Source of the DNA: a virus
Taxonomy: Duplodnaviria; Heunggongvirae; Uroviricota; Caudoviricetes
IMG/VR virus record: IMGVR_UViG_2799113015_000003
Coordinates: 1-64,000 of that record
Direction: 5' to 3' (one strand)
DNA: 64,000 nucleotides
Positions 12,052 through 60,330 of this stretch are shown here, in pieces; the first letter of the stretch is position 1, and every line of letters starts with the position of its first letter. The translations under genes and the position numbers were made by a program. The notes below the pieces were generated by a model. It had not been told where the DNA came from, did not search any database, and saw only the letters and a program-made list of their open reading frames with translations.

Positions 12052-12127
12052 ATACCAATGCTATTGAGCGATTACGGGTTCATGTGGGTACGAAAAAGCC
12101 CCCAGCTTTCGCTGAGGGCTCTTCGAG

Positions 12128-12198
12128 TAGTCCATGCGGGAATCAAACCCGCACCAACACCTTGAGAGGGTGGTGTGCTCTCACTACACCAATGGACC
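12128..12198 (-). tRNA. tRNA-Glu (anticodon CTC)
   Basis: T-arm GCGGG/AATCAAA/CCCGC (reverse complement); 7-bp acceptor with G1-U72; anticodon loop CTCTCAA. Confidence 0.7.
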
Positions 12199-12204
12199 TT
12201 AGGG

Positions 12205-12543
12205 CTATTGCTCAACCCACTTGCCGGATTCACGAACCTCTGTCTTGAGGTTAACCGGCCACATATCACGCTCCACTTGGGCACGTTGTAGGTCTTCGCG
12301 GCCCACCTGACGTTTCACCCATAGCTGGAACTTTGGTGAGCTCGCCATGCGCCTGAACGCGGCCTGCTTGTTCTGCAGCTGGCTACGCTCCTCGCGCGAC
12401 TCACCCACCGCGCCAGAAGGCTCATGCGTAATCCGCACGCCCGTCTCGCGCTTGTTCTGGTTTTGACCGCCTTTGCCCCCAGATCGGAATGTGTCCACAC
12501 GACAATCCGAGAGGGTGACAGACAGTACCCGTTCTCTACTCAC
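12205..12543 (-). CDS. ArfB-like peptidyl-tRNA hydrolase (class I release-factor GGQ domain protein)
   Basis: FRSGGKGGQNQNKRETGVRITHEPSG matches the RF-1/ArfB GGQ catalytic loop (E. coli ArfB [22 protein letters not shown]); ~110 aa with a basic C-terminal tail, as in ArfB. Confidence 0.65.
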   Translation of the reverse strand: MSRERVLSVTLSDCRVDTFRSGGKGGQNQNKRETGVRITHEPSGAVGESREERSQLQNKQAAFRRMASSPKFQLWVKRQVGREDLQRAQVERDMWPVNLKTEVRESGKWVEQ

Positions 12544-12544
12544 G

Positions 12545-12618
12545 TCAAGTCGACCGGATTTGAACCGGCGTCCCCCGCCGTGACAGGGCGGTGCTTTAGA
12601 CCTCTAAGCTACGACTCG
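12545..12618 (-). tRNA. tRNA-Asp (anticodon GTC)
   Basis: Acceptor pairs 12546-52 with 12612-18; anticodon arm CCGCC/GTGACAG/GGCGG. Confidence 0.7.
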
Positions 12619-12675
12619 AAAGAACGTTTGCCCCCAGTGGTTTTCGAGGCCACCGGGGCAGGTACGAACAACCTG

Positions 12676-12750
12676 AGCCAACTTTCTGGGAATCAAACCC
12701 TGGAGCTGCTTGGCCAAAACTCCCGTGGAGACGGTGCGAATTGAACGCGA
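12676..12750 (-). tRNA. tRNA-like sequence, isotype undetermined
   Basis: T-arm-like CTGGG/AATCAAA/CCCTG at 12686-12702, but acceptor and anticodon stems could not be paired by hand. Confidence 0.3.
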
Positions 12751-12800
12751 CCACACCAATCTTGCAAGGATCGGTCGCCACCTTGGAACATGCGCCCCCA
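12726..12800 (-). tRNA. possible tRNA-Ala (anticodon TGC), poorly folding
   Basis: Anticodon arm CAATC/TTGCAAG/GATCG gives loop CTTGCAA; T-arm GTGCG/AATTGAA/CGCGA is imperfect and the acceptor was not resolved. Confidence 0.3.
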
Positions 12801-12869
12801 AGGCCCCCGTTTTGACAAGACTGGGTCTGAACTTGGACGGTTACCTCAACGGAGCCGACAACCCTGTAG

Positions 12870-12943
12870 GGCCTCATCGAGGTCTCGAACCCCGCGCCTC
12901 TTCGTTACTAAGGAAGTGCTCTAGCCGGATGAGCTAATGAGGC
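12870..12943 (-). tRNA. tRNA with anticodon AGT (Thr?)
   Basis: Perfect 7-bp acceptor 12871-77/12937-43, D-stem GCTC/GAGC and a good T-arm; anticodon loop TTAGTAA gives the unusual A34 anticodon AGU. Confidence 0.55.
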
Positions 12944-12992
12944 CTGTTGCATAGGCGTTTTGAACAGGTGCCCTTGCAAGTGGCCTGTGGCG

Positions 12993-13065
12993 TACCCAGT
13001 CGAGGAATCGAACCCCGCTTGGCTGGATGTAAGCCAGCTTTCGTCCCAGACTAACCAGGCATGAG
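12993..13065 (-). tRNA. possible tRNA-Val (anticodon TAC)
   Basis: T-arm CGAGG/AATCGAA/CCCCG and a perfect anticodon arm GCTGG/ATGTAAG/CCAGC; acceptor pairing not confirmed. Confidence 0.45.
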
Positions 13066-13140
13066 AACGAGTGACCAGATTCGAACTGGCACGACCTGTT
13101 TGGAAGACAGGGATGCTAAACCGTTAAACATCACACTCGC
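13066..13140 (-). tRNA. tRNA-Gly (anticodon TCC)
   Basis: Acceptor 13067-73/13134-40; anticodon arm CCTGT/TTGGAAG/ACAGG. Confidence 0.7.
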
Positions 13141-13144
13141 ATGG

Positions 13145-13212
13145 AGCGGCAGAGGTGACTCGAACACCCTTGCAGCGGCTTAGGAGGCCACGCACTTTCC
13201 GGAACTACCGCT
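13145..13212 (-). tRNA. possible tRNA-Arg (anticodon CCT), short or atypical D region
   Basis: T-arm AGGTG/ACTCGAA/CACCC; anticodon arm GCGGC/TTAGGAG/GCCAC; only ~68 nt between the acceptor halves. Confidence 0.4.
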
Positions 13213-13215
13213 TGG

Positions 13216-13287
13216 TAGGTTCGCACAGAATTGAACTGCGATTGCCGACGTATCAGGTCGGTGTCCTTACCATTGGACGACGAACCA
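13216..13287 (-). tRNA. tRNA-Ile (anticodon GAT)
   Basis: Acceptor 13217-23/13281-87 (6 of 7 pairs); anticodon arm CCGAC/GTATCAG/GTCGG. Confidence 0.65.
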
Positions 13288-13288
13288 G

Positions 13289-13360
13289 TGGGAGCACCAG
13301 GGGTCGAACCTGGGATTCATGGGTAAGAGCCAAGAGTTATAACCGCTTAACTATACTCCC
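13289..13360 (-). tRNA. tRNA-Lys (anticodon CTT)
   Basis: Perfect T-stem CCAGG/CCTGG; acceptor 13290-96/13354-60; anticodon loop CTCTTAC. Confidence 0.6.
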
Positions 13361-13361
13361 C

Positions 13362-13433
13362 TAGGGCGCAAGGGATTTGAACCCTCAACTCGTAGATTAA
13401 AAGTCTAGGGTGATGCCGTTTCACCAACGCCCA
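13362..13433 (-). tRNA. tRNA-Lys (anticodon TTT)
   Basis: T-arm AAGGG/ATTTGAA/CCCTC; anticodon loop CTTTTAA. Confidence 0.6.
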
Positions 13434-13434
13434 G

Positions 13435-13509
13435 TAGTCGGCGCGAGGATCGAACTCGCACACACCGAGGTTTGAGCTCGGCGGCTTTGCCAGGTTTGCC
13501 TAGCCGACC
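13435..13509 (-). tRNA. tRNA with anticodon CAA (Leu codon UUG) but class-I length
   Basis: Perfect T-stem GCGAG/CTCGC, acceptor 13436-42/13503-09, perfect anticodon stem CCGAG/CTCGG with loop CTCAAAC; only a 5-nt variable region (75 nt total). Confidence 0.55.
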
Positions 13510-13567
13510 ATGCTCAGCATTTAACCGACCCAAGGCGGTTGGCACCCGTGAGGGCTGTTTGAACCGG

Positions 13568-13641
13568 TACTCCAAGAGGGATTCGAACCCACAACCTCCA
13601 GGGTCTAAGCCTGTCGCCTCTGCCAGTTGGGCTATTGGAGC
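13568..13641 (-). tRNA. tRNA with anticodon TAG (Leu codon CUA) but class-I length
   Basis: Acceptor 13569-75/13635-41; anticodon loop CTTAGAC; 74 nt with a short variable region. Confidence 0.5.
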
Positions 13642-13698
13642 TTGGTGCCGATATTGCCGCGTCGGCTTTACGGTGACTCCTACTCACCGCGCGCGTCG

Positions 13699-13770
13699 AG
13701 ACGAAGGCCGGGATCGAACCGGCGTGGGTCAGGGTTGCAGCCTGCCAGCTAGCCACTCACTCACTTCGCC
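13699..13770 (-). tRNA. tRNA-Cys (anticodon GCA)
   Basis: Perfect T-stem GCCGG/CCGGC; acceptor 13700-06/13764-70; anticodon loop CTGCAAC. Confidence 0.65.
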
Positions 13771-13778
13771 TTAAGCCG

Positions 13779-13943
13779 CTATTCTGCGGCGGGTGCTGCC
13801 TTCTTCGCGGGTGCCTTCTTGGCTACCGGCTTCTCTTCCACTGCGTAGTGGAAGTCCTCAAGGGCATCCATACGATCAATCAGGTCGTTTACCGCCTTGA
13901 CGATGTCGATATGGGCGATGCCCGTGCGCAGCTTGTCAGTCAT
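13779..13943 (-). CDS. small lysine/alanine-rich protein, 54 aa
   Basis: ORF MTDKLRTGIAHIDIVKAVNDL...KKAPAKKAAPAAE directly downstream of the HNH gene (ATGACTGA junction); below the ORF-track size cutoff. Confidence 0.25.
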   Translation of the reverse strand: MTDKLRTGIAHIDIVKAVNDLIDRMDALEDFHYAVEEKPVAKKAPAKKAAPAAE

Positions 13944-14337
13944 TGGTCGCCTCTGCTAGTCGTTTTCTGTAGTCGCGCTTACGATTTCTTGCTGCTAACC
14001 GACAGAGGCCGCAGCGGCACCCCCATCGGTCATACATTGTGCTTGTCCCATGGCGGGTTGGCCGCGTGCCATGCGTGAGCGGCATTTGGGCTGTGGTCTT
14101 GTCGCGATGACACCTCTTACAGAGGGGTTGACACTTCCTCAGCTCTGCCTGGAGTCGCGGCTCGGCCCAACTCCATATTCGGTGAGATGATTTCTCCATC
14201 GGATCGATGTGGTCGATCTCGAGTTGCTCAGTCGCACCGCAACTCACACACTTTCTGCCCTCAAAGTACCTAGCACGCCTTGCGGCCTGCCGTAGTCGTT
14301 CGTATTCTCGTCGGCGGACAGGATCTTTGATTGGCAT
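13936..14337 (-). CDS. HNH endonuclease (paralog 1) embedded in the tRNA array
   Basis: CVSCGATEQLEIDHIDP...CKRCH...GCRCGLCR HNH/zinc-finger motifs; start set at internal ATG 14337 (AGGGG RBS) because the longer ORF would overlap tRNA-Arg. Confidence 0.7.
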   Translation of the reverse strand: MPIKDPVRRREYERLRQAARRARYFEGRKCVSCGATEQLEIDHIDPMEKSSHRIWSWAEPRLQAELRKCQPLCKRCHRDKTTAQMPLTHGTRPTRHGTSTMYDRWGCRCGLCRLAARNRKRDYRKRLAEATND

Positions 14338-14432
14338 GTAACCCCTGTTTATATTGGGGTGACCGGACGGTACTGACCCGTCATCCTCGCGGTCACATCG
14401 CGAGATTCTCAACCTTTGAACTACGGTCACAG

Positions 14433-14507
14433 ACCCGTTGGCAGGATTCGAACCTGCATGCGTTGCGCCTTCGTAGGGCGGTGGGCGCTCCATTGCCCAA
14501 CAACGAG
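14433..14507 (-). tRNA. tRNA-Arg (anticodon ACG)
   Basis: Perfect T-stem GCAGG/CCTGC; acceptor 14434-40/14501-07; anticodon loop CTACGAA with A34, as expected for bacterial Arg-ACG. Confidence 0.7.
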
Positions 14508-14517
14508 AGCAGGCGGT

Positions 14518-14536
14518 TTAACGTGGAGTGCCCAGC
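14518..14536. repeat. 19-nt repeat TTAACGTGGAGTGCCCAGC (copy 1)
   Basis: Identical apart from one base to 14788-14806; lies 11 nt beyond the 5' end of tRNA-Arg on the tRNA strand. Confidence 0.5.
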
Positions 14537-14645
14537 ACGGAGCAGTTTTTCGTGATGTCTCAACACGGATGGTTCTTCCAGTTGTGAACCAACAACATTC
14601 ATGAGCCAGTTTCTACCCCAGCCGTGTACTGGCAACCCTCGTCCG

Positions 14646-14720
14646 TGGCGGGTACCGGATTTGAACCGGTGGTCTCAAGGTTATGAGCCTTGCGAGATGG
14701 CCGAGCTTCTCTAACCCGCT
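14646..14720 (-). tRNA. tRNA-Met (anticodon CAT)
   Basis: Perfect T-stem ACCGG/CCGGT and anticodon stem CAAGG/CCTTG with loop CTCATAA; 1-72 position is an A-C mismatch. Confidence 0.65.
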
Positions 14721-14787
14721 AAGTATGAGTGACTCATTCCGGCAGGACAGTTCGTCGCCTGCCGTATCCGCGCGAGTCAACGCGGCC

Positions 14788-14806
14788 TTTTACGTGGAGT
14801 GCCCAG
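14788..14806. repeat. 19-nt repeat TTTACGTGGAGTGCCCAGC (copy 2)
   Basis: Second copy, 68 nt beyond the 5' end of tRNA-Met. Confidence 0.5.
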
Positions 14807-14846
14807 CTTTTCACCAGTAGCTGTGGAACCTGGTTTCCCTTACACG

Positions 14847-14920
14847 CCGACTCTCCCCGAATCGAACGGGGGCGCACCGGGCTTCAACCGGTCGCTCTTA
14901 CCTAACTGAGCTAAGAGTCG
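14847..14920 (-). tRNA. tRNA-Phe (anticodon GAA)
   Basis: Perfect T-stem CCCCG/CGGGG, perfect acceptor 14848-54/14914-20 and anticodon stem ACCGG/CCGGT with loop TTGAAGC. Confidence 0.7.
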
Positions 14921-15214
14921 ATTGTTAGAGGCTGAGAGTACACCCGCTATCGAGAACCTTTCGCAGCATTATGGATTCGCTGCTTCTCCAGGCCATCCCT
15001 GACCTAGTTCTCACGCCTGGTCCGTTACCGTGAACCACTCGTTATGCCGAAAGCTACTCTGCGGCTTTCCCTTCGCGATGAGATGGCCGTCTCACTGCTG
15101 CAGTACTTGCCTACAAACCGCACTCACCTTGCGGGACTATTGTGCGGCCCAGATTCCCGAGGGTCTGGGATTAAGGCGCTTTTGCTCCTCGGCAGGGGAA
15201 GGACTTTTGCTTTT

Positions 15215-15290
15215 TATTGACGACGGGACTTGAACCCGCACATCCAGTTTCCAATAACTGGTGACCTACCGTTGGTCTACGCCATTCTCG
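15215..15290 (-). other. degenerate tRNA-like element
   Basis: Good T-arm ACGGG/ACTTGAA/CCCGC and an anticodon-like hairpin CCAGT/TTCCAATA/ACTGG with an 8-nt loop; no matching acceptor stem found. Confidence 0.25.
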
Positions 15291-15740
15291 CAGCGGAGAA
15301 TGATTTGACTAGAGACGTGCTTCCCCATGAAGTTCCGCACCCTTTTGGGGCACAGAATGCTTCACGCCTCTCGTGCTTTCGCCTGGCGGGGCTAATTACA
15401 CTCTCTCTCAACCGCATTGCGAGCCGTCGCCCGACGCGAGATCGATCATGGAACACGCCCTTGCTTGCGAGGCTCGGACTCAGTTCCTTCCGTTCCACAG
15501 GGCGCTTGTTCGATAGCCTTTTCACACGCACGTACGTGATGGTGTCCTCAGCACTTTGCCGTTGGACGGGGCGTAACTCGCAACCTGGCAGCCATCACTG
15601 ACTGCTCAAGGATTGGATTGCATGGATTGCCCTTGCGGGTGGTGGGTTGTCACCCCACCTTTCACCACCTTGCGGTGGCTTATGGGCCATGCCCCGAATG
15701 TCTTAACTATATCTCCCACAACAGAGTTCGTGTGGGTGAG

Positions 15741-15822
15741 CGGAGAGGCAGGTATTCGAAACCTACTGCGAACAGCGCTCCGGTTAGCAACCGGGCCTAG
15801 TCACCTAACTAGTTGCGCTCTC
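15741..15822 (-). tRNA. tRNA-Ser (anticodon GCT), class II
   Basis: T-arm CAGGT/ATTCGAA/ACCTA; anticodon loop TTGCTAA; ~13-nt variable arm; 82 nt. Confidence 0.55.
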
Positions 15823-15903
15823 CAAAATCCACCCCTTCGGCGTCGACACTGGACTCGACGCACCTGTATTCACTCTTAGCCATGGCCAGGCGGGTGGAGA
15901 ACG

Positions 15904-15988
15904 AGGAAGGTAGAGGAATCGAACCCCCGAGTTTTCAGGCTCGCCCCGGTATTCGACGCCGGTTGCCGACCATTCAGCGGTGCCTTCC
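15904..15988 (-). tRNA. tRNA-Ser (anticodon CGA), class II
   Basis: T-arm AGAGG/AATCGAA/CCCCC with G-U pairs; long variable arm; anticodon loop GTCGAAT; 85 nt. Confidence 0.5.
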
Positions 15989-16068
15989 ATATGCCCCATT
16001 TTGATAACGCAACTGGAGCGGCTGCGGGCAGTCAACTCATGGCAGGTACCTACCGGTTGACTCAAAAG

Positions 16069-16140
16069 CTGAAGACCCTGGATTCGAACCAAGAACTGCG
16101 ACGTTCAGAGCGTCGTGTGTTGCCGTTACACCAATCTTCA
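16069..16140 (-). tRNA. tRNA-Gln (anticodon CTG)
   Basis: Acceptor 16070-76/16134-40; anticodon arm CGACG/TTCAGAG/CGTCG. Confidence 0.7.
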
Positions 16141-16217
16141 AGGGCGATTTGACCGTATGCATCCGATCGGGAGCCGCAACCCAGCAGATCATTTGCCCCG
16201 GCCTGCCAGCGGAGTCG

Positions 16218-16299
16218 TACGGACTGATGGATTCGAACCACCACACTCGAAAGCTCTGATTTACAGTCAGAGATCCCTCGCCAATAGGAGAGAGTCCGC
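16218..16299 (-). tRNA. tRNA-Tyr (anticodon GTA), class II
   Basis: Acceptor 16219-25/16293-99; anticodon arm TCTGA/TTTACAG/TCAGA; 11-nt variable arm; 82 nt. Confidence 0.7.
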
Positions 16300-16302
16300 A
16301 TT

Positions 16303-16680
16303 TCACGATGCACGTTGTCGGCGCTTCGCGTTTCGGGCCCACAGGCGACACAGCCCGCATCGGCAGCCGTGTCGTTGGTACATTCTGCACGTGCCATGTC
16401 GGTAGGACTTGAAACCGATGGTGATCTCGGTTTGCGCGATAGTCTTCGCCTTGTGGCAGGCACGACACAGGGCTTGACACTTATCCAATTCTGCAATGCG
16501 TCTGCCTGCCGACCAGGACCAAATCGCGTTCGTAACCTTCACTGTTGGATCAATGTGATCCAGTTCAAGGTCACCCCCTGAACCGCAAGAGGCACATACC
16601 CTTCCGGCGAACCACTCGTCACGTCGACCTGCTCGCCACTCTCGTTGGTACCGGCGCTTCACTTCACCTGTAAGTGTCAT
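16303..16680 (-). CDS. HNH endonuclease (paralog 2) embedded in the tRNA array
   Basis: CASCGSGGDLELDHIDP...CRACH...YRHGTCRMYQRHGCRCGLCR aligns with the 13936..14337 product; the ORF is flanked tightly by tRNA-Tyr and tRNA-Asn. Confidence 0.75.
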   Translation of the reverse strand: MTLTGEVKRRYQREWRAGRRDEWFAGRVCASCGSGGDLELDHIDPTVKVTNAIWSWSAGRRIAELDKCQALCRACHKAKTIAQTEITIGFKSYRHGTCRMYQRHGCRCGLCRLWARNAKRRQRAS

Positions 16681-16684
16681 AACG

Positions 16685-16758
16685 CTGGCTTGGCAGGATT
16701 CGAACCTACACCTCGCGAGTTAACAGCTCGCTGCTCTACCAATTGAGCTACAGGCCAA
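16685..16758 (-). tRNA. tRNA-Asn (anticodon GTT)
   Basis: T-arm GCAGG/ATTCGAA/CCTAC; anticodon arm GCGAG/TTAACAG/CTCGC. Confidence 0.65.
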
Positions 16759-16876
16759 GAGCGAGGGTGGCCAGTGTCAGCGCGCTTTCTGACCTGTGCG
16801 ACCCTCTTGCCCGTCCTGCTTAGAGATGAGACGGAGCCGAAAACACCCGTACGGTCATCATACGTGATGACCAACG

Positions 16877-16951
16877 TCTGCCAGGCGCGATTTGAACACG
16901 CGATCTCCTGGACCCAAACCAGGCGGGATGGCCAAACTTCCCTACAAGCAG
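16877..16951 (-). tRNA. tRNA-Pro (anticodon TGG)
   Basis: T-arm GCGCG/ATTTGAA/CACGC; perfect anticodon stem CCTGG/CCAGG with loop TTTGGGT (G37); perfect D-stem GGGA/TCCC. Confidence 0.6.
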
Positions 16952-17194
16952 ATGATGGACGACACGGCCCAGGTACGGCACCTCAGGTCAGATCCTTTTT
17001 ATCGGAACCTACTGCGGGATTACCCTGCCATCCATATGGCCACCGGCATCCCGATGGCCGCGCGGAGATGTCTCTCCACATTCCCCGTACGACCGACGCT
17101 TTCCTGGAGCTACCTGTACTTGCGCATGTGGTCTGACAGCCGGGGCCACACTGACTAACGAGGATGTTCTCCCTTTGCACTACCGGCAGCCTAC

Positions 17195-17260
17195 GCCGCC
17201 AGTCGGGGCTCGAACCCGAATCTTCCTCTCGTGGAGCTGCCCGGAATTGAACCGGGATGT
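17195..17260 (-). other. two adjacent perfect T-arm-like hairpins (tRNA-like fragment or structured ncRNA)
   Basis: TCGGG/GCTCGAA/CCCGA at 17203-19 and CCCGG/AATTGAA/CCGGG at 17240-56, with no resolvable acceptor or anticodon arms. Confidence 0.2.
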
Positions 17261-17642
17261 TACGTGACTTGTCACAGTCTTCTACGTGCGTAGTCCACCG
17301 ATTGGGTCGGTTGGGGTGGACGCCTGTCCGAATCGAGACCTCAGACTCTCGACCGATCTTCCAGCACAGTTTGTCGCCTGAGAGCTGGTCATTGCGAGTT
17401 CCCCGTATTCGCGACGGTGAATTGGTACACGGAACGGGTAAACCGTTGTACCCCACCGGACTACGCAGCTAGGGCGTAGTCGGACTGAGCAGAAGCTGCA
17501 GTTATTGTGGTTGCACTGTTACGGGCGTTGCGGACCCGGCACGCTTCTCAGTAAGTTGACACGCAATCGAATACCTGTCAGCCCCATTGAAGTATCTATA
17601 TCTCTATGGAGTTTTCAAATGTCATGCCACACAGAGGCATTG

Positions 17643-17713
17643 CACGGGCGGAGAGAATCGAACTCCCACTAACGGGTTTGGAATCCGTTGTCCTGCCTTT
17701 GGACCACGCCCAT
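17643..17713 (-). tRNA. tRNA-Trp (anticodon CCA)
   Basis: T-arm GAGAG/AATCGAA/CTCCC; acceptor 17644-50/17707-13; anticodon loop TTCCAAA. Confidence 0.65.
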
Positions 17714-45782: not shown

Positions 45783-46139
45783 TCAGGAGACGCGCTTCGC
45801 GAGATTGATCTTGCGGCGCAATGCGATACGCTCTTCTTCGTTCAGTCCGGTAATCTTCGGGAACAGGTCATCCAGGATGTCCGTAAGCCCGGTGACCGCG
45901 CCCACCAGCTGATCCAACCGGTCGCGAAGTTCCGCATTCTCCTTGCGCACTTCCTCGCGGATTGCGGTGGAGATAGCCGAAAGTACTTGCGCTTCATCGA
46001 CCTTGCGCTTACGTCGACCTGTTGCGAGCTCAATAATCTTGCTCAGCACACCACCAGCGGCCAGGGCCCCAAACAGGGAGACCACTGTCTCGGCGTCAAG
46101 ATCAATGAGCTCGTCCACCAGGCTCACAACTCGGCCCAA
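45783..46139 (-). CDS. hypothetical coiled-coil protein in the tail block
   Basis: ORF. Confidence 0.4.
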   Translation of the reverse strand: MGRVVSLVDELIDLDAETVVSLFGALAAGGVLSKIIELATGRRKRKVDEAQVLSAISTAIREEVRKENAELRDRLDQLVGAVTGLTDILDDLFPKITGLNEEERIALRRKINLAKRVS

Positions 46140-53826: not shown

Positions 53827-56800
53827 TTAGCCGTACTTGGAGATGTAAGGCATTGCCGCCTGTGCGTCCGAGGTCGCCTGAACCCTCTTGAATTCATCAA
53901 GGTTCGTGACGTGGTACTGACGGTTGTCGTTCACCAACTTCGGAACGCCGGTCTGCTGCGGCTGACGAGAAGGCAGCATTGGGATACCCGAGGCAGACTG
54001 AGTGGATCCACCAGTGGCGGTACCAACCAATAGCGACGACAGGATGTTCACGGCACCAGAGATGGCCTGGCCACCCATCTGGAAACCGGCCTGAATCCCC
54101 TGCCCTGCGGCACCACCAGCGCCAGGCGCGGCGGTGTTGATGCCCATGGAGGCAGCCATCGCTGCTAGGCCACCAATAGCCCCTGCAGCACCCTTAATCG
54201 CACCGGAGACACTGGGGTTGTTGTGCTCCTGGGAGGTAGGTGCAGCACCCAGGGTCGCGCGCATGTCTGGCTGATCGGTAGGAGATGCGCCAGGCTGTGC
54301 ACCTGGATCACCCGCCTGTGGACCGGCACCCATAGCGGCACCAGCTCCACCAACCTCAGTCAAAGCGTCATTGACCTGGGGAAGAGCGCCAGGGTCAGGA
54401 GCGGGAGCAGTCGCCCCGGGCCCCGGCGCACCTCCGGTCGAAGGGACCGCACCAGCTGCGCCAATAGATGGCACCTGAACAGTGGGAGCAGGCTGCTGCT
54501 CGGGCTGATCTAGGTCTAGCGGTCCAGGGGTCTGGCCACCAGCTCCAGGAGCAGGAGGAGGCGGAATGAAGAGCGGGAATCCACCGTCAGCGAATCCCTT
54601 GGCGACGTTGCGTGGAACCTTCTTGCTATTGAGCGCATCGAACAGCGCGGGCCCATAGAACTTGGTCGCGTCTCCGCTGGTGCGATACTCACCGGTCGAC
54701 AGCCATGCCAAGTCGTTGGCCCAGCCACCATCGGCAAAACCGACACCGCGCCCGATCTGGTTTGGCGATCCGTCCTTGTTAACGCCCCATCGCTTGATGG
54801 TGTAGTTGATGGCAGCGGCGATCTGGGATACCGGGTCGTTGATACTTCCCGACCCAATGTTTTCGACCTTGTAGGAGTCGAAAGTGGTTGGCAGGAAGTT
54901 AAATAGACCCTGGACGGTTTGCCTTCCGCCCTTGCCATCCGTGTCATTAGGATTGATCGAGAACGGATCACCCTTCGACTCAGTCCAGATCTGCTCCTCA
55001 AGGGGCTTCTGCCACAAGGAGGGATCCACGCCCATTGCCGCACAGATCTGTGCGATGAGCGCTCCATAGCGCGCGTGGATCTGCTCCTTCGTGGTCGACT
55101 GTCCGAGACCACTCGTAGGAGCCCCACCCTTGCCCGAGCTGTATGCACTCGGATCGAACGACATCCCATTGGCCGCTAGCTTCTGCTGCAACTGAGGGCT
55201 CAAGCCCGCGACACCGCTTGAGTAGTCGGACATAGCCTGGTCGGCCACATCAGCGCCAGAGTTGGATCCGTTGGATCCGTTGAGTGCGCCCATGAACTTG
55301 TCGAGCGGGTTGGAATTCTTCTTAGGCTCGTCGCTCAGGTAGTAGTTGCCGATCTGCTGGGCTGCCTGGACATATGACAAGTCAAGGCCGAAGATTCCGG
55401 CCAACGCCTGCAGACCGACCTGGCCGACCTGCTTTGCGATCGACACTGGCTGAATGTTGTCAGGCAGAGTCTTCAAGGCTGCCAAAAGGTTTGGCGTACC
55501 CGATCCACCGCCCTGCTGGTAGATATTCGGCAGCATCGATCGCCCACCAGGCAATGGAATAGACCAGCTCTGACGGGTGTGAACGTGGTCGGTATGTCCA
55601 CCCCAGTCGTCGCGGTAGTAGTCCTCAATCGACTGGTTAGCGCCACGATCACCTGGATCAACGCCGATCTTGGTTCCGTCACGCGGATCCATGAAGATGA
55701 CCTGCTCCATGCCGGGAACAGACTTCACGTACTCCGCGAAAGCACGAAGGTTCTCGGGAGGACCAGTCCAGTCGATGCCCTTGTTCAGGCCACTCTTTTC
55801 CTGGTGTCCCGGATAAGTGGATGCCTTCAGCCCGAAGGCTGAGCCGAGCTGGTTGACCCAGTCGGGGAACTTGACTCCCTGGCCGCCGAATCCTTCACTA
55901 TTGGATCCGACCGCAATGCCGTATGGCTCGCGGATATCAGGCACCCCGCCACCCAGTGCAATGTCCGCACCCGGGATGCTGAAATCAGCTCCAGGGCCTG
56001 GTGTTACAGGCGTATCGCCAAGATGAGGGGCTGGCTTACCGATCGAAGGTGCTGCACCACCAGGGTTTAGCGTCTGCTTCGGGCCAATCGGAGGAAGATC
56101 GGGCGCAGGAGCAGGACGTGGTGGAGGTGCAGGAAGCGGCGCAGGGACAGGCGCAGGCGCTGGAGCGGGTGCTGCTGGCTCGGGCATGAATCCAGGCGCG
56201 ACAGCGGGCATTGGCGCGATACCCCCACCACCGCCAATGGGGCCGATAGGGCTCGGCACCGGCATAGGAGGCTGCTGTGGGATATCGAACGGGAATCCGC
56301 CGCCGAAGTGGCGAGGAATCCTCTTGTTGTTCAGGTCGTCAAATAGCTTGACGCCGTAGTAACTAACGGCATCCGCATTGGTGATGTGCTCGTATGGCGA
56401 GACGCGAACCAGGTTCATGTCATCGCGCGGGCCACCGATTCCCCGAACGAGACCGCCGTCCTTGAACTTCTGGACATCTAGAAGCTGAGCAGTGGCATCA
56501 GCAGTCAGGTGAGTCTCGTACTGGCCGTCGCGAACCTTTGTGGTCGAACCGATCGTCTCATCAACGTTCGGATCACGGTCGGTAGTGATTACACCGTTAC
56601 CGTCCTGACCGATCGCAATGTGCGAGGAGTCATTCAGGCCACCGAAGGGCCCGAAGATCGCAGCACCACGGCCACCAGGCTTGAAGCGCCCCTGTCCGTT
56701 AGATGCCTCGTTGACCTGTCGCTTGTCCGCACCATGCTGGCCCAGCGAGCTCGGGATGTCGCTAAGACCGATCAGCGGGGCCGCGAGATCGATGGTCCCA

Positions 56801-59577
56801 GTGGACTTCAGTACCGAGGTGAAATCGTGCGGGATAGCTCCAGTGGCCTGTCCAGCAGAAATGCGAGGCGTGTTAACAGCGGCAGGCATCCATGGAAAGA
56901 TGTTGTGGCTCTGGAGAATATCGTTATATGCCTTGTCAACCTTCTCCTTGGCCTTCTGGTCACCACGCAGACCGGCCACGAAAGTGTCAAGGTCAATGCC
57001 GCGCTCGTTCCACAGGTCAGCGTCACCACGCCAGACCGCGCTCGAACCGATAATCGACTTCAGCTGCTCCTGGCCAGCGCCAAGGAGCTGACTGCGCTGT
57101 GCGTCGTTACCAGGGAGCATCGCCGCAAGAAGCTGTGCATCGCTCTGAACCAAGTTGGAGCGACGAGCATCCTCAAAGAGGTTCCTATCCCCCAGGCCGG
57201 GGATGGCGTACTTCTGGGCGCTCTTGGCGGTCTCGGTTACACCCTGCGCGTTGAGGTTGCCAGTGACGTCGTCAATAGCACCCTTCAGGCCATCGAGGGC
57301 AACCCTCTGCCTATCAGCGTCTTCGGCAGCCTTGCGGTGAGACTCTCCGAGCTTATCGATGGCAATGATCGCGCCGCCTACGGCAGCGGTGAGTGCCAGC
57401 GGTCCGAATAGGGCCCCGGCGAGCGCACCAACACGGGTGAGCATCGAAGCCCTACCGGCCCCACCGATCTTCTCCCCCGCACGCGTGGCAGCATCACCAA
57501 CATCGTTGATGCCCTTGCGGGCGTTGCCTGCCGCAGTAGTAGTCGCCGTGAGCTTGGGCTCAACCTCTTTAACCTTGCGACCGAAAGCGTCGTACCGGTT
57601 ACCTGCGCGGTCTACAGCTTCACCGAAGCGCAGGGCCTCCTCACGCGCCTGACGGCTCGAGAGACCAGGAAGCTCCTCGCCCTTGGCAACACGAAGGTTG
57701 CGCGCCGTAGCCTGAACGCCAGGGATGTTGCGAGTCCCCTCGAAACGTGCAGCGGCCTCAACAACCTTGTTGTAGTTCTTCCACGCCCCAGTGAGCCCCT
57801 CAAGAATGGGCTTGACCGTGCGGTACGTCAGATAGACCTTCAGCAGGGTGGAGAGCGCATGCGTGTGCTGCTCGATCCACCTCGCGGAGCTGATGAATAC
57901 GCCGAGGGCTCCAAGCATCGCTGCCGACCACTCGCGCGCAGCCTCTACCGCATCTCCGATTCCCCCCTTGACACGCTTCAACGCATCCCAGAGGCGATCA
58001 ATGAAGTCGCGAGCCTCACCGAAGTACTTCGCCAACATGTTCTGGCCGCGTGTGGACTTCAGGAAGTCGTCAAGCTTCTTCGTTCCATCGGCCAACGAGG
58101 AGATGAATCCGCCCTTATGACCGGAAGCCTTATCGAAGGCAGCGGCCACCGACGAGACGATCCCGCCGATGTTCAACAGCGAGTTGCCAAGATCACCGAT
58201 GGCCTTCAGGCCTGAGTCAATCCAGCGGTCGAGCGAACCGTCAGTGGAAACTCGCTTGGTGAACCGATCGAAGCGGTCGAAGACCGAAGAGAACGCATTA
58301 CCAATGCGTGGCAGGAAGTCTGAGGACTCCTTGGTCAACCGGGTGAAGCCACTGATCAGTGGGTCCATTCCCCGGGCCATGTTGCGCCAGAAGATGTCAG
58401 TGTTACCGAAGATCGCGGACATTAATCCCTGGTTGGCGTTGCCTCCAACGGAGGACAGCGCGCTCCTTAGGGCAGCGTTAATTCCGCTTGCGGTGCGGCG
58501 GATTCCGATGGACAGTCCTGGCAGGGCCTTCTGGCCTAGCTCCGTAATCGCTACATCGAGGCCCTCGCTAAGAGCGTCCTGAGAGCTCTGCTGAAGTTCA
58601 TGCCATGCACCCGATAGCCCATGGACCGCCTCGACGGTCTTGCGCATATTCGGCGACAGCTGGCCGAGCGCCTTGTCTACCTCTGAGATCTTCGAGGCGC
58701 TGAGAGCCTCTGTGTTCTTCGCAATCTGGTCGAGGGCATCAAGTACCCGATCCGCGCCTTCTACGCCCTGAGCGTTCGCGTCAGCGGCATCCTGCGCAGT
58801 CCTTTGCGCCTTGGTCTGAACCTCCTGCAGGTGATCCAGCGCCTGCAGGTACGAAAGCTGGTCACGCTTCAACTCAGTAAGCGAACGCTGACCACCCTCA
58901 CGGATACGGTCAGCAGCCTCCTGCACCGACAGAACGGCATCCGCCACATTTAGAGACGAACGACGATTCTCCGCGTTCAGGTCCTGAATCTCGCGGATAG
59001 TGTCGCGAACAGCCATGCGATACGAGCGATACGAGCTCTCCACATTGCGGTTCGCAGTGGCGATCTCACGCGCACGAGTCGTTGCGTCCTTGGAGTCTGC
59101 CGAGTAGGCCTTGAAAGCAGCTCCAACACCATTGAGTCCAACAGCAAGCGCGCCAACCGATGCCAGTGCACCGCCAAGTAGGCCAGGAAGAGCAAAGGCG
59201 CTCTTAGCCAACGCGTCTAGGCCCGACGTGGCGCTACCAGCCGCATACGCAAGAGCCGGTAGGGCGTCGAGCCCAATTACCTTGATATTTAGGCGAAGTG
59301 CCTTAGAAAGAGAGTTCCGCTTGAAGATGTGCTCAACCTGCGAAAGGTCGCGACGGAACGTCTGAAGATCTGCCCGGACGGGGATCGAAACCGCATTCAG
59401 TTCCTGGCGCTGACGCCAAGCCTGCACTTCTGCCTCGGCCTTGCCGAGCTGCGGGTCAAATTCGATCTTGATGTGATCGAACTTCATTGCGTTAAGGCGG
59501 CGATCCGCCTCAGTCTTGAACCCACGCAGAGTAGGGACAATGCGGATTGCGGCCTCACCCACTAGGGTGGCAGCCAT
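53827..59577 (-). CDS. tmp: tape measure protein, 1916 aa
   Basis: Longest ORF; lies between the chaperone pair and the minor tail genes; N-terminal coiled-coil, Pro-rich spacers and an internal lytic-transglycosylase-like segment (EQIWTESKGDPFSINPNDTDGKGGRQTVQGLFNFLPTTFDSY). Confidence 0.9.
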   Translation of the reverse strand: MAATLVGEAAIRIVPTLRGFKTEADRRLNAMKFDHIKIEFDPQLGKAEAEVQAWRQRQELNAVSIPVRADLQTFRRDLSQVEHIFKRNSLSKALRLNIKVIGLDALPALAYAAGSATSGLDALAKSAFALPGLLGGALASVGALAVGLNGVGAAFKAYSADSKDATTRAREIATANRNVESSYRSYRMAVRDTIREIQDLNAENRRSSLNVADAVLSVQEAADRIREGGQRSLTELKRDQLSYLQALDHLQEVQTKAQRTAQDAADANAQGVEGADRVLDALDQIAKNTEALSASKISEVDKALGQLSPNMRKTVEAVHGLSGAWHELQQSSQDALSEGLDVAITELGQKALPGLSIGIRRTASGINAALRSALSSVGGNANQGLMSAIFGNTDIFWRNMARGMDPLISGFTRLTKESSDFLPRIGNAFSSVFDRFDRFTKRVSTDGSLDRWIDSGLKAIGDLGNSLLNIGGIVSSVAAAFDKASGHKGGFISSLADGTKKLDDFLKSTRGQNMLAKYFGEARDFIDRLWDALKRVKGGIGDAVEAAREWSAAMLGALGVFISSARWIEQHTHALSTLLKVYLTYRTVKPILEGLTGAWKNYNKVVEAAARFEGTRNIPGVQATARNLRVAKGEELPGLSSRQAREEALRFGEAVDRAGNRYDAFGRKVKEVEPKLTATTTAAGNARKGINDVGDAATRAGEKIGGAGRASMLTRVGALAGALFGPLALTAAVGGAIIAIDKLGESHRKAAEDADRQRVALDGLKGAIDDVTGNLNAQGVTETAKSAQKYAIPGLGDRNLFEDARRSNLVQSDAQLLAAMLPGNDAQRSQLLGAGQEQLKSIIGSSAVWRGDADLWNERGIDLDTFVAGLRGDQKAKEKVDKAYNDILQSHNIFPWMPAAVNTPRISAGQATGAIPHDFTSVLKSTGTIDLAAPLIGLSDIPSSLGQHGADKRQVNEASNGQGRFKPGGRGAAIFGPFGGLNDSSHIAIGQDGNGVITTDRDPNVDETIGSTTKVRDGQYETHLTADATAQLLDVQKFKDGGLVRGIGGPRDDMNLVRVSPYEHITNADAVSYYGVKLFDDLNNKRIPRHFGGGFPFDIPQQPPMPVPSPIGPIGGGGGIAPMPAVAPGFMPEPAAPAPAPAPVPAPLPAPPPRPAPAPDLPPIGPKQTLNPGGAAPSIGKPAPHLGDTPVTPGPGADFSIPGADIALGGGVPDIREPYGIAVGSNSEGFGGQGVKFPDWVNQLGSAFGLKASTYPGHQEKSGLNKGIDWTGPPENLRAFAEYVKSVPGMEQVIFMDPRDGTKIGVDPGDRGANQSIEDYYRDDWGGHTDHVHTRQSWSIPLPGGRSMLPNIYQQGGGSGTPNLLAALKTLPDNIQPVSIAKQVGQVGLQALAGIFGLDLSYVQAAQQIGNYYLSDEPKKNSNPLDKFMGALNGSNGSNSGADVADQAMSDYSSGVAGLSPQLQQKLAANGMSFDPSAYSSGKGGAPTSGLGQSTTKEQIHARYGALIAQICAAMGVDPSLWQKPLEEQIWTESKGDPFSINPNDTDGKGGRQTVQGLFNFLPTTFDSYKVENIGSGSINDPVSQIAAAINYTIKRWGVNKDGSPNQIGRGVGFADGGWANDLAWLSTGEYRTSGDATKFYGPALFDALNSKKVPRNVAKGFADGGFPLFIPPPPAPGAGGQTPGPLDLDQPEQQPAPTVQVPSIGAAGAVPSTGGAPGPGATAPAPDPGALPQVNDALTEVGGAGAAMGAGPQAGDPGAQPGASPTDQPDMRATLGAAPTSQEHNNPSVSGAIKGAAGAIGGLAAMAASMGINTAAPGAGGAAGQGIQAGFQMGGQAISGAVNILSSLLVGTATGGSTQSASGIPMLPSRQPQQTGVPKLVNDNRQYHVTNLDEFKRVQATSDAQAAMPYISKYG

Positions 59578-59590
59578 TTAGTCTCCTGGA

Positions 59591-60055
59591 CTATTGACGC
59601 TGTGTCCGTTCGCGATTGCGCTGCTGCGCGCGCTCGACAGCGTTCTTGGTTTTGATCAACTTCCGCTGGAGACGCAATTCGAGGCCCGGAATGACAGGAC
59701 CCGGCAAGGACTTGCCGATCTGCACCTCAACGAGGCGCTTCAACCACGCGATATCTTCGGTGTGCCCGAAGATGCGTACCTTGTTGGGACCGTCATCGCT
59801 GTCCATACGAGACCCCATCCATTCGATAGTTTCCGGGTCGTTGAGAACAGCCTCATTGGTCAGAGTGCCCTGGATATTCATCAGGGTGTCAAAGAATCCG
59901 AGTAGCTCATCAATGGGCCGCTTGCGTCGCCATCGGCCATCGCCAACCGGCTCCCACTGGAAGTACTCGTATGCAGAGAAATGAAGAAGGTGCTGGCAAT
60001 CCCAGCAGATCGCTGACCAGTAGCGGTCAACGATCGTGATTAGTCTTTTAGGCCC
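59591..60055 (-). CDS. tail assembly chaperone, -1 frame extension (T part of a G-T fusion; made by frameshifting)
   Basis: The -1 frame relative to the upstream chaperone gene stays open from 60055 to 59591. Confidence 0.4.
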   Translation of the reverse strand, partial: GPKRLITIVDRYWSAICWDCQHLLHFSAYEYFQWEPVGDGRWRRKRPIDELLGFFDTLMNIQGTLTNEAVLNDPETIEWMGSRMDSDDGPNKVRIFGHTEDIAWLKRLVEVQIGKSLPGPVIPGLELRLQRKLIKTKNAVERAQQRNRERTQRQ

Positions 60056-60330
60056 TCATCACCCGGCGCTCCGAAGAAGTGGCGCAGGTAGAGGGTGTTG
60101 AAGTTCTCCCACACGTGCTTTGGCAGCGGGTCGAACAGCTCATGGACGGCGTCGTACAGATCACCAAACAAGGCGCGCTCACCGGCCTCAATCGTTGGGG
60201 CGGAACGCCACGCGTTCACCTGCGCCTGAGTTGGCTCAAGGAACTTTAGTCCCTGGAACTCCAGCGGAGGGATAGCATTTTCAGTCTGAAGCTTCTCCCA
60301 GACTGAATCGGTGTTCTTTGCAGTAGCCAC
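60040..60330 (-). CDS. tail assembly chaperone (G-like)
   Basis: 96-aa ORF between the major tail and tape measure genes. Confidence 0.5.
   Translation of the reverse strand: MATAKNTDSVWEKLQTENAIPPLEFQGLKFLEPTQAQVNAWRSAPTIEAGERALFGDLYDAVHELFDPLPKHVWENFNTLYLRHFFGAPGDEGLKD

Follow-up and report, generated by a model that had tools for sequence, protein, structure and literature searches.

It has been recognised since 2003-2006 that tape measure proteins (TMPs) of mycobacteriophages can harbour wall hydrolases (Pedulla 2003; Piuri & Hatfull 2006, PMC1796659). In phage TM4, the tape-measure hydrolase motif Mt3 is not needed for assembly and promotes the infection of cells in stationary phase (Piuri & Hatfull 2006, PMC1796659). 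Here, we analysed a stretch of 64,000 nucleotides (positions 1 to 64,000 of the IMG/VR virus record IMGVR_UViG_2799113015_000003, hereafter the window), in which an open reading frame (ORF) of 1916 amino acids (aa) plus stop, located at 53827-59577 on the minus strand according to the ORF list and its translation, encodes a TMP. An earlier reading of the sequence, hereafter the original prediction, had assigned to this protein, with no strand given, a segment resembling lytic transglycosylases (SLT), a metallopeptidase-like histidine cluster and a duplicated module followed by proline-rich linkers.

Several other described systems can be compared with this protein. VldE (Spr1875) from Streptococcus pneumoniae (PDB 9flh) is a proven L,D-endopeptidase in which H301, D308, H370, D372, H373 and H375 are each essential (PMC11667670). 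The lytic transglycosylase domain of gp15 from corynephage BFK20 is referred to in PMC13232314 as the subject of a biophysical study (Papayova 2025). In JBD30 gp46, two helices and a beta-hairpin are predicted to make up a hook at aa 1022-1066; on the model of T5, this hook is proposed to hold the TMP in the opened baseplate once cleavage at residue 1066 has removed the C-terminal domain (PMC11445458). In T5 itself, pb2 is cut after R1127, between the hydrophobic stretch and the peptidase, and the 43 residues before the cut come to lie between subunits of the hub (PMC10038345). Furthermore, the last 33-42 residues of the TMPs of Douge, JBD30, T5 and lambda form a trimer within the hub.

We consider it probable that the protein described here is the TMP of a MabI prophage that combines an N-terminal ruler with a C-terminal part in which two wall enzymes lie between two copies of a module. 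Since TMPs of this kind have long been known and the gene is already annotated in near-identical prophages, the finding as originally stated adds little. Three points are possibly new, in a modest way: (i) the link of the histidine-cluster domain family to MT3/LAS peptidases and to endolysins, (ii) the correspondence of the module with the 'hook' motif of JBD30, with a weaker match in lambda gpH, and (iii) the bracketing of an exchangeable peptidase slot by the two module copies.

Identity of the gene

The ORF encodes the tail TMP of a cluster MabI (cluster M-like) prophage of Mycobacterium abscessus. In agreement with the original prediction, the protein matches PHROG 3547 ('tail length tape measure protein') over aa 1-1915 with E=0, and the gene shows 98.0% nucleotide identity, over 100% of its length, with gene 44 of prophi86-1, which is annotated 'tape measure protein'. 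The annotated TMP genes of prophiT49-2 and prophiGD54-2 are 98% and 83% identical to it, respectively. The order of genes on the minus strand is major tail protein, two tail assembly chaperone ORFs, TMP and minor tail proteins belonging to PHROG 106 and PHROG 110. The TMP gene is the largest of the tail module and lies between the chaperones and the distal tail/hub genes. According to Dedrick et al., these M. abscessus prophages belong to cluster MabI and are organised as in cluster M mycobacteriophages; in essence, the window is such a prophage. A tail length of ~287 nm is predicted from 0.15 nm per residue.

A lytic transglycosylase-type domain

Evidence from family-level comparison, profiles and a predicted structure argues that the embedded lytic-transglycosylase-type domain (hereafter S) is real. 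The peptide on which the original prediction was based (WTESKGDPF...TTFDSY) is found at aa 1531-1569. The segment is SLT-like as claimed; it lies at nucleotides 54871-54987, about 200 nt away from the interval of 55.07-55.30 kb that had been given for it.

A word-indexed homologue search with the 125-aa SLT segment returned no matches. Since the index is evidently sparse for such sequences, an exhaustive HMMER search of 1.84 billion representatives was used instead, and it retrieved 548 relatives of the SLT domain at E<=1e-3, most of them TMP-sized and some small. In the alignment of 47 relatives, residues E41-S42, which correspond to E1533-S1534 of the TMP, are invariant. Taken singly, 42 of these 47 relatives match SLT PF01464, the best with E=5.6e-15. 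Moreover, the family profile matches MltC (E=0.006), with the E-S motif aligned on the TES of MltC, and the AlphaFold2 model of the domain (pLDDT 94.6, pTM 0.89) has a lysozyme-like fold. By tblastn, the domain was found in 127 phage records, nearly all annotated as TMP among the matches listed, which include phages of Enterococcus, Bacillus and Lactobacillus as well as BFK20. The domain of BFK20 gp15 belongs to the same SLT subfamily (family HMM E=1.6e-36).

Several results weigh against this assignment. The whole-protein Pfam scan gave 0 SLT matches, and isolated segments compared with SLT PF01464 reached 17.9 and 19.8 bits, below the gathering score of 21.3. The whole-protein NCBIfam scan gave nothing useful. 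The original prediction had proposed to abandon the SLT call if no hit exceeded the Pfam threshold, and formally this is the outcome (19.8 bits at best). However, this test was too strict, since the family-level, profile and structural evidence shows that the domain is real. In addition, the position of the GLMQ motif reads GLFN in this TMP and in its closest TMP relatives, so that we infer transglycosylase activity rather than regard it as demonstrated. From its homology, the domain would cut the glycan strand of peptidoglycan.

A conserved histidine-cluster domain

The other enzyme-type domain (hereafter D) is the better conserved of the two. Both strings quoted for it in the original prediction are present, GHQEKSGLNKGID at aa 1257-1269 and HTDHVH at aa 1328-1333, and the histidine cluster does appear to be part of a metallopeptidase, as had been suggested. 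We propose that D is a probable Zn-dependent peptidoglycan peptidase of LAS-fold/MT3-like type. By analogy with VldE, it probably cleaves the stem peptide at L-Ala-D-iGlu/iGln.

All 35 proteins found in a homologue search with the C-terminal 877 aa match aa ~1216-1345, with 42-59% identity. By tblastn, D was detected in 398 phage records (246 from Gordonia and 150 from Mycobacterium), and the best 60 of the 398 are annotated as TMP throughout. In an alignment of 27 sequences, H54, D65, H124, H127 and H129 (model numbering) are invariant; they correspond to H1258, D1269, H1328, H1331 and H1333. Together with D1330, these residues are candidate metal ligands. The MT3 ligand pattern (His...Asp followed by HxH, HxDHxH) is found here as H1258, D1269 and H1328-T-D1330-H1331-V-H1333, and it parallels the six essential residues of VldE. 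TM4 Mt3 has H-M-D-H-V-H where D has H-T-D-H-V-H. The best match of D in structure and signature taken together is the LAS-fold MT3 domain, the structural side being not significant in Foldseek. An hhalign comparison of the D family with an alignment of four Mt3 sequences gave 63 collinear columns with P=9e-4, at a probability of just 22%; it pairs IDW with LDxM, AEY with xxY, EQVIW with EYxIW and the histidine strings with each other. Mt3 of TM4 is itself related to VldE (E=8e-13). A word-indexed search with TM4 Mt3 gave two matches only.

Furthermore, D occurs outside tape measures. In metagenomic proteins of ~500 aa (P0023, P0030-P0034), it forms the N-terminal part of PHROG-700 endolysins whose core is Amidase_2; in mycobacteriophage LysA proteins, this place is normally held by a peptidase. 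This combination is absent among the sequenced-phage matches listed, which are TMPs. That D replaces the N-terminal peptidase of these endolysins, and that sister TMPs fill the same slot with a classical Mt3 or with an NlpC/P60 domain, makes its reading as a wall peptidase more credible. This family of ~140 aa, present in ~400 actinophage genomes, can tentatively be tied to the VldE/MT3 L,D-endopeptidases and to endolysins.

Other observations point the opposite way. No Pfam or NCBIfam model matches D, and Foldseek comparison of its AlphaFold2 model (pLDDT 86.3) with the PDB gave nothing significant. BLASTP of D against Mt3 aligned the histidine string alone, with no further similarity. The spacing from His to Asp is 10 residues in D and 21 in relatives, versus 6 in VldE and TM4. 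A search of PDB sequences with the D profile found no chain, VldE included, and Foldseek did not recover VldE either. The place of D outside every Pfam and NCBIfam family, its non-canonical spacing, the lack of a significant Foldseek match in the PDB and the low hhalign probability would all be expected if D were a structural, metal-binding or wall-binding domain that shares HxDHxH with Mt3 by chance, which would leave S as the sole enzyme. Against the company that D keeps in endolysins and the nature of the domains that take its place in sister TMPs, we regard this alternative as unlikely, and a peptidase remains our reading of D.

Two candidate identities were rejected. An M23 peptidase, for which the original prediction had proposed a scan, finds no backing: D gives neither a PF01551 match nor an M23 structural match. 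Neither D nor S corresponds to 'motif 2' of Pedulla, as the TMPs of Cjw1 and Rosebush carry neither and have an NlpC/P60-like domain instead. As a separate observation, Cjw1 gp22 and Rosebush gp29, the TMPs that define motif 2, show the signature of an NlpC/P60-like cysteine peptidase (G.PY.WG....G.DCSG), and the homologous segment of another collected protein (P0053) exceeds the Pfam NLPC_P60 cut-off. Motif 2 is therefore apparently a relative of NlpC/P60.

The duplicated module and its proline-rich spacers

The cores of the two modules, YYGVKLFDDLNNKRIPR (aa 1073-1089, nt 56311-56361) and FYGPALFDALNSKKVPR (aa 1640-1656, nt 54610-54660), lie where the original prediction had placed them. Direct pairwise BLASTP of the two copies gave E=8e-13 with 31% identity over an extended region; self-BLASTP of the TMP did not report the pair, so that the direct run was needed. 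The duplication is thus significant, while its unit is longer than the ~35 aa announced: an iterated HMM delimits a module of ~59 aa with the consensus QGFASGGLIPGPGTGTSDSILARLSPGEHVLNADAVRAYGQALLDALNAGALPGFAAGG.

Of the 187 collected proteins, 93 contain this module; 40 have it in two copies and 2 in three. With its consensus, tblastn retrieved 1328 phage records, nearly all TMPs, including those of Vibrio, Pseudomonas, Burkholderia and Marinitoga viruses. Neither the module nor its consensus was assigned to a Pfam family. Among PDB sequences, the module profile matches Douge gp16 twice (E=3.7e-46), JBD30 gp46 at aa 1018-1077 (E=3.3e-18) and, weakly but collinearly, lambda gpH (PDB 8iyk chain H) at aa 733-782 (E=0.0046). 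These similarities indicate that the modules are copies of a motif conserved in TMPs of siphophages from Actinobacteria to Proteobacteria.

The match in JBD30 coincides with the published hook. This correspondence is a lead rather than a demonstration, since the module region is invisible in every deposited structure found and the module profile did not detect T5 pb2. The hook and cleavage role is, moreover, itself a prediction made for JBD30, which also tells against carrying it over to the present modules.

The same region leads to the possibility that the TMP is cut at or just after each module (...GGG/FPFDIP and ...DGG/FPLFIP, the slash marking the cut). This would free a bifunctional hydrolase of ~570 aa, made up of spacer, D, SLT domain and module 2, and a C-terminal membrane/plug fragment of ~250 aa, like pb2* and pb2C of T5. 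Such processing is compatible with the explanation proposed above and does not exclude it. The 43 residues that precede the cut of T5 pb2 after R1127 are an anchor, the cleavage predicted in JBD30 falls at the C-terminal edge of the mapped motif, both copies of the present TMP end with GGFP(F/L)xIP and BFK20 gp15 is annotated with two products. Conversely, the OE33PA preprint disputes proteolysis as the source of the shortened TMP subunits of OE33PA and Douge. We view cleavage as conceivable and, on balance, doubtful. Lambda gpH is reportedly processed to gpH*, as Tsui and Hendrix are said to have described in 1983. The weak module match at aa 733-782 of the 853 residues of gpH presumably lies near this processing site.

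Both copies are followed by a proline-rich stretch, as the original prediction had noted; a literal PAPAPAP occurs only after the first one, the second reading PPPPAP and APAPDP. Family-wide, the 80 aa that follow the module average 16% proline (25% after copy 2), compared with 6% overall and 6% before the module. This enrichment indicates that the module and its proline-rich spacer form a conserved composite unit.

Age of the duplication

The original prediction had taken the duplication to suggest modular length evolution. If the tape measure, and with it the tail, had recently grown by internal duplication, this would account for the significant similarity of the two segments, and also for the greater likeness of copies from the same protein than of random cross-protein pairings (0.475 versus 0.347, permutation p<2e-4). 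Comparison across proteins gives a different picture. With copy 1 of another TMP, copy 1 shares 72% identity, as against 43% with its own copy 2; likewise, a closer copy 1 exists elsewhere for copy 1 in 35 of the 38 two-copy TMPs, and the own copy 2 ranks first in 9 of the 38. At the DNA level, the two copies are only ~53% identical, and a search of the gene for a long direct repeat through which the cassette might be deleted gave none. In addition, the region between the copies consists of two unrelated enzyme domains rather than of repeated ruler, and the bracketed layout is also found in Rosebush, Douge and BFK20.

The cross-protein likeness of copy 1 and the divergence of the DNA imply that the duplication predates the divergence of these TMPs. 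From these comparisons, the module copies are old positional orthologues, and recent lengthening appears very improbable. The excess likeness of copies within a protein could result from co-evolution with a shared partner, gene conversion or rate heterogeneity.

Two module copies around an exchangeable slot

HMMs for the module (M), D, S, Mt3 (T) and NlpC/P60 (N) were mapped on all collected TMP-sized proteins. As this set was chosen by SLT or D similarity to the query TMP, the proportions of the architectures are biased, which tempers what can be drawn from them. The layouts were M-S-M (13 proteins), M-D-S-M (10, the query counted), M-N-S-M (6) and M-T-S-M (6, plus 2 with an extra M). The two-module bracket was found in at least 38 collected TMP-sized proteins, mostly representatives of 50%-identity clusters, and also in Rosebush, Douge and BFK20. 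Rosebush is M-N-M, TM4 is M-T and BFK20 is M-N-S-(weak M). The recurrence of the bracket in TMPs less than 50% identical to one another is real.

The distance between the two modules varies from 286 to 1024 aa. Although total length ranges from 1251 to 2414 aa, copy 2 of most two-copy proteins keeps a distance of ~210-315 aa from the C-terminus; a few outliers have it at 60 and at 446-465 aa. In actinophage TMPs, one module copy flanks each side of an exchangeable hydrolase cassette.

A broader proposal, which we advance with considerable reserve, is that the ~59-aa module is a universal docking (perhaps cleavage) element of siphophage TMPs. Its actinophage pair would serve as 'bookends' of a plug-in peptidase slot (D, Mt3, NlpC/P60 or none) beside a fixed transglycosylase, and D would be an unnamed branch of MT3/LAS common to tape measures and endolysins. 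Should the bookends serve for docking or cutting, they would provide either two-step anchoring or the release of a free bifunctional hydrolase. The bracketed slot suggests where TMPs could be engineered for other wall-degrading activities. Moreover, the module that coincides with the hook lends itself to mutagenesis as a concrete target in relatives of the phages with which M. abscessus infections are treated.

Anatomy of the protein and proposed mode of action

The successive parts of the protein are listed in Table 1.

Table 1. Parts of the tape measure protein and their positions in the window
Feature	Residues (aa)	Positions (nt)	Strand	Basis or remark
N-terminal 'ruler'	1-1035	56473..59577	-	charged, Ala-rich; hydrophobic segments aa 126-156 and 715-745 (hydropathy/composition scan)
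Module copy 1, QKFKDGGLVRGIGGPRDDMNLVRVSPYEHITNADAVSYYGVKLFDDLNNKRIPRHFGGG	1036-1094	56296..56472	-	iterated HMM, E=1.3e-21
Pro-rich spacer 1, with PAAPAPAPAPVPAPLPAPPPRPAPAP	1095-1215	55933..56295	-	aa 1121-1160 are 45% Pro
His-cluster domain D	1216-1354	55516..55932	-	probable Zn-dependent peptidoglycan peptidase, LAS-fold/MT3-like
Hydrophobic linker element, ...LAGIFGLDLSYVQ...	~1380-1410	55348..55440	-	between peptidase and transglycosylase; read by eye from sequences
SLT-like lytic transglycosylase domain S	1496-1614	54736..55092	-	putative catalytic E1533-S1534
Module copy 2	1613-1661	54595..54741	-	HMM E=2e-13 and alignment to copy 1; adjoins SLT domain
Pro-rich spacer 2	1662-1790	54208..54594	-	aa 1641-1720 are 20-23% Pro
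Gly/Ala-rich hydrophobic region	1791-1866	53980..54207	-	candidate membrane-inserting segment
C-terminal ~50 aa		53830..53979	-	presumed plug in baseplate hub, by inference

Several TMP PHROGs match the ruler over aa 100-600. Module copy 2 lacks the consensus Gly-x-Gly...SD loop. Strings of the FFGLDLS type occur at the place of the hydrophobic linker element in sister TMPs, in Douge gp16 (aa ~1213-1240) and in TM4 gp17 (aa 1058-1078). A short hydrophobic element, (F/L)(F/L)G(L/I)D(L/P)S..., recurs between the peptidase slot and the domain that follows in many TMPs, even when their peptidases differ. The Gly/Ala-rich region has 28% Gly, 28% Ala and zero charged residues over aa 1801-1840, with hydrophobic windows at aa 1790-1808 and 1838-1856. 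It is a candidate for insertion in the membrane on the model of T5 pb2 and JBD30. Likewise, the last ~50 aa are presumed to plug the baseplate hub, as the TMP ends do in the phages with a C-terminal trimer mentioned above.

The identity of the protein, its domain boundaries, the homology and fold of S, the conservation of D and its presence in endolysins and the recurrent bracket are established here, whereas the enzymatic activities, the bond specificity, the sequence of events and a role of the modules in anchoring or cleavage belong to the proposal that follows. We propose the following course of events. The N-terminal ~1035 residues would act as length ruler and the C-terminal ~880 residues would leave the tail first at infection. 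From the C-terminus, this part comprises the presumed hub plug, the Gly/Ala segment, a proline-rich spacer, module 2, the family-1 lytic transglycosylase, the linker, the probable peptidase, a second proline-rich spacer and module 1. When the tail tip opens, the C-terminal end would be expelled into the envelope and the hydrophobic stretch would engage the membrane. The two enzymes would then open the peptidoglycan locally and let the DNA conduit through, the transglycosylase acting on glycan strands and the MT3-like peptidase on stem peptides. The benefit would be greatest on stationary-phase cells, by analogy with TM4 Mt3, the case for which the help to infection claimed in the original prediction is documented (Piuri & Hatfull 2006, PMC1796659). 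More speculatively, the modules might serve for docking in the opened tip, mark sites of cleavage or do both, and the proline-rich stretches might be extended spacers across the thick mycobacterial envelope.

Genomic setting

ARAGORN detected 21 tRNA genes (20 with a normal anticodon and one odd call) and a tmRNA with the tag AASAQSDYALAA at 12127-17713 of the window, on the minus strand. Such a large tRNA/tmRNA set is typical of cluster M/MabI and therefore fits the placement of the prophage in MabI. The odd call is a tRNA-like gene at 15215-15286 (minus strand), located inside the tRNA array, for which ARAGORN gives a two-base 'anticodon' (tRNA-???, tg); it is possibly degenerate, or else a tRNA of an unusual kind.

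Next to the TMP gene, two minus-strand ORFs of 96 aa (59591-59881 and 60040-60330) match opposite halves of the 270-aa chaperone phrog_2624 (positions 6-106 and 161-265). This is the pattern expected of a G/GT frameshift pair, yet ~158 nt separate the two ORFs. A near-identical prophage labels the second one merely as hypothetical. Among the minor tail genes, the ORF at 45783-46139 (minus strand) is the positional counterpart of gene 54 of prophi86-1, which is annotated 'delta-like endotoxin'.

Comparison with known systems

The MabI prophages prophiGD86-1, prophiT49-2 and prophiGD54-2 carry the equivalent gene in the same type of genome, with no substantive difference. Within cluster M, D is 64% identical and the SLT domain 43% identical in both PegLeg and Reindeer, and two module places were recorded in Bongo.

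TM4 gp17, like the present protein, is a siphophage TMP with an embedded peptidoglycan hydrolase, and Mt3 and D share H-x-D-H-V-H. In TM4, a single module (aa 703-766) lies directly upstream of Mt3. Unlike the TMP described here, TM4 gp17 has a single hydrolase, a single module and no SLT domain, and the overall similarity of the two TMPs is negligible. VldE, whose ligand pattern D parallels, differs in being a cellular, LysM-anchored protein and in its shorter His-Asp spacing (6 versus 10 residues).

BFK20 gp15 resembles the present TMP by its SLT subfamily and by its layout (module, peptidase, SLT and weak module); the tblastn match covers 57% of a 161-aa query with 33.7% identity. However, the peptidase slot of BFK20 holds an NlpC/P60-like domain, and its canonical GLMQ contrasts with the GLFN found here. 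Lastly, the hook region of JBD30 gp46 is the module match, and both JBD30 and lambda lack enzyme domains and have a single module copy, located 75-120 aa before the C-terminus, whereas the TMP described here has two copies placed around ~520 aa of enzymes.

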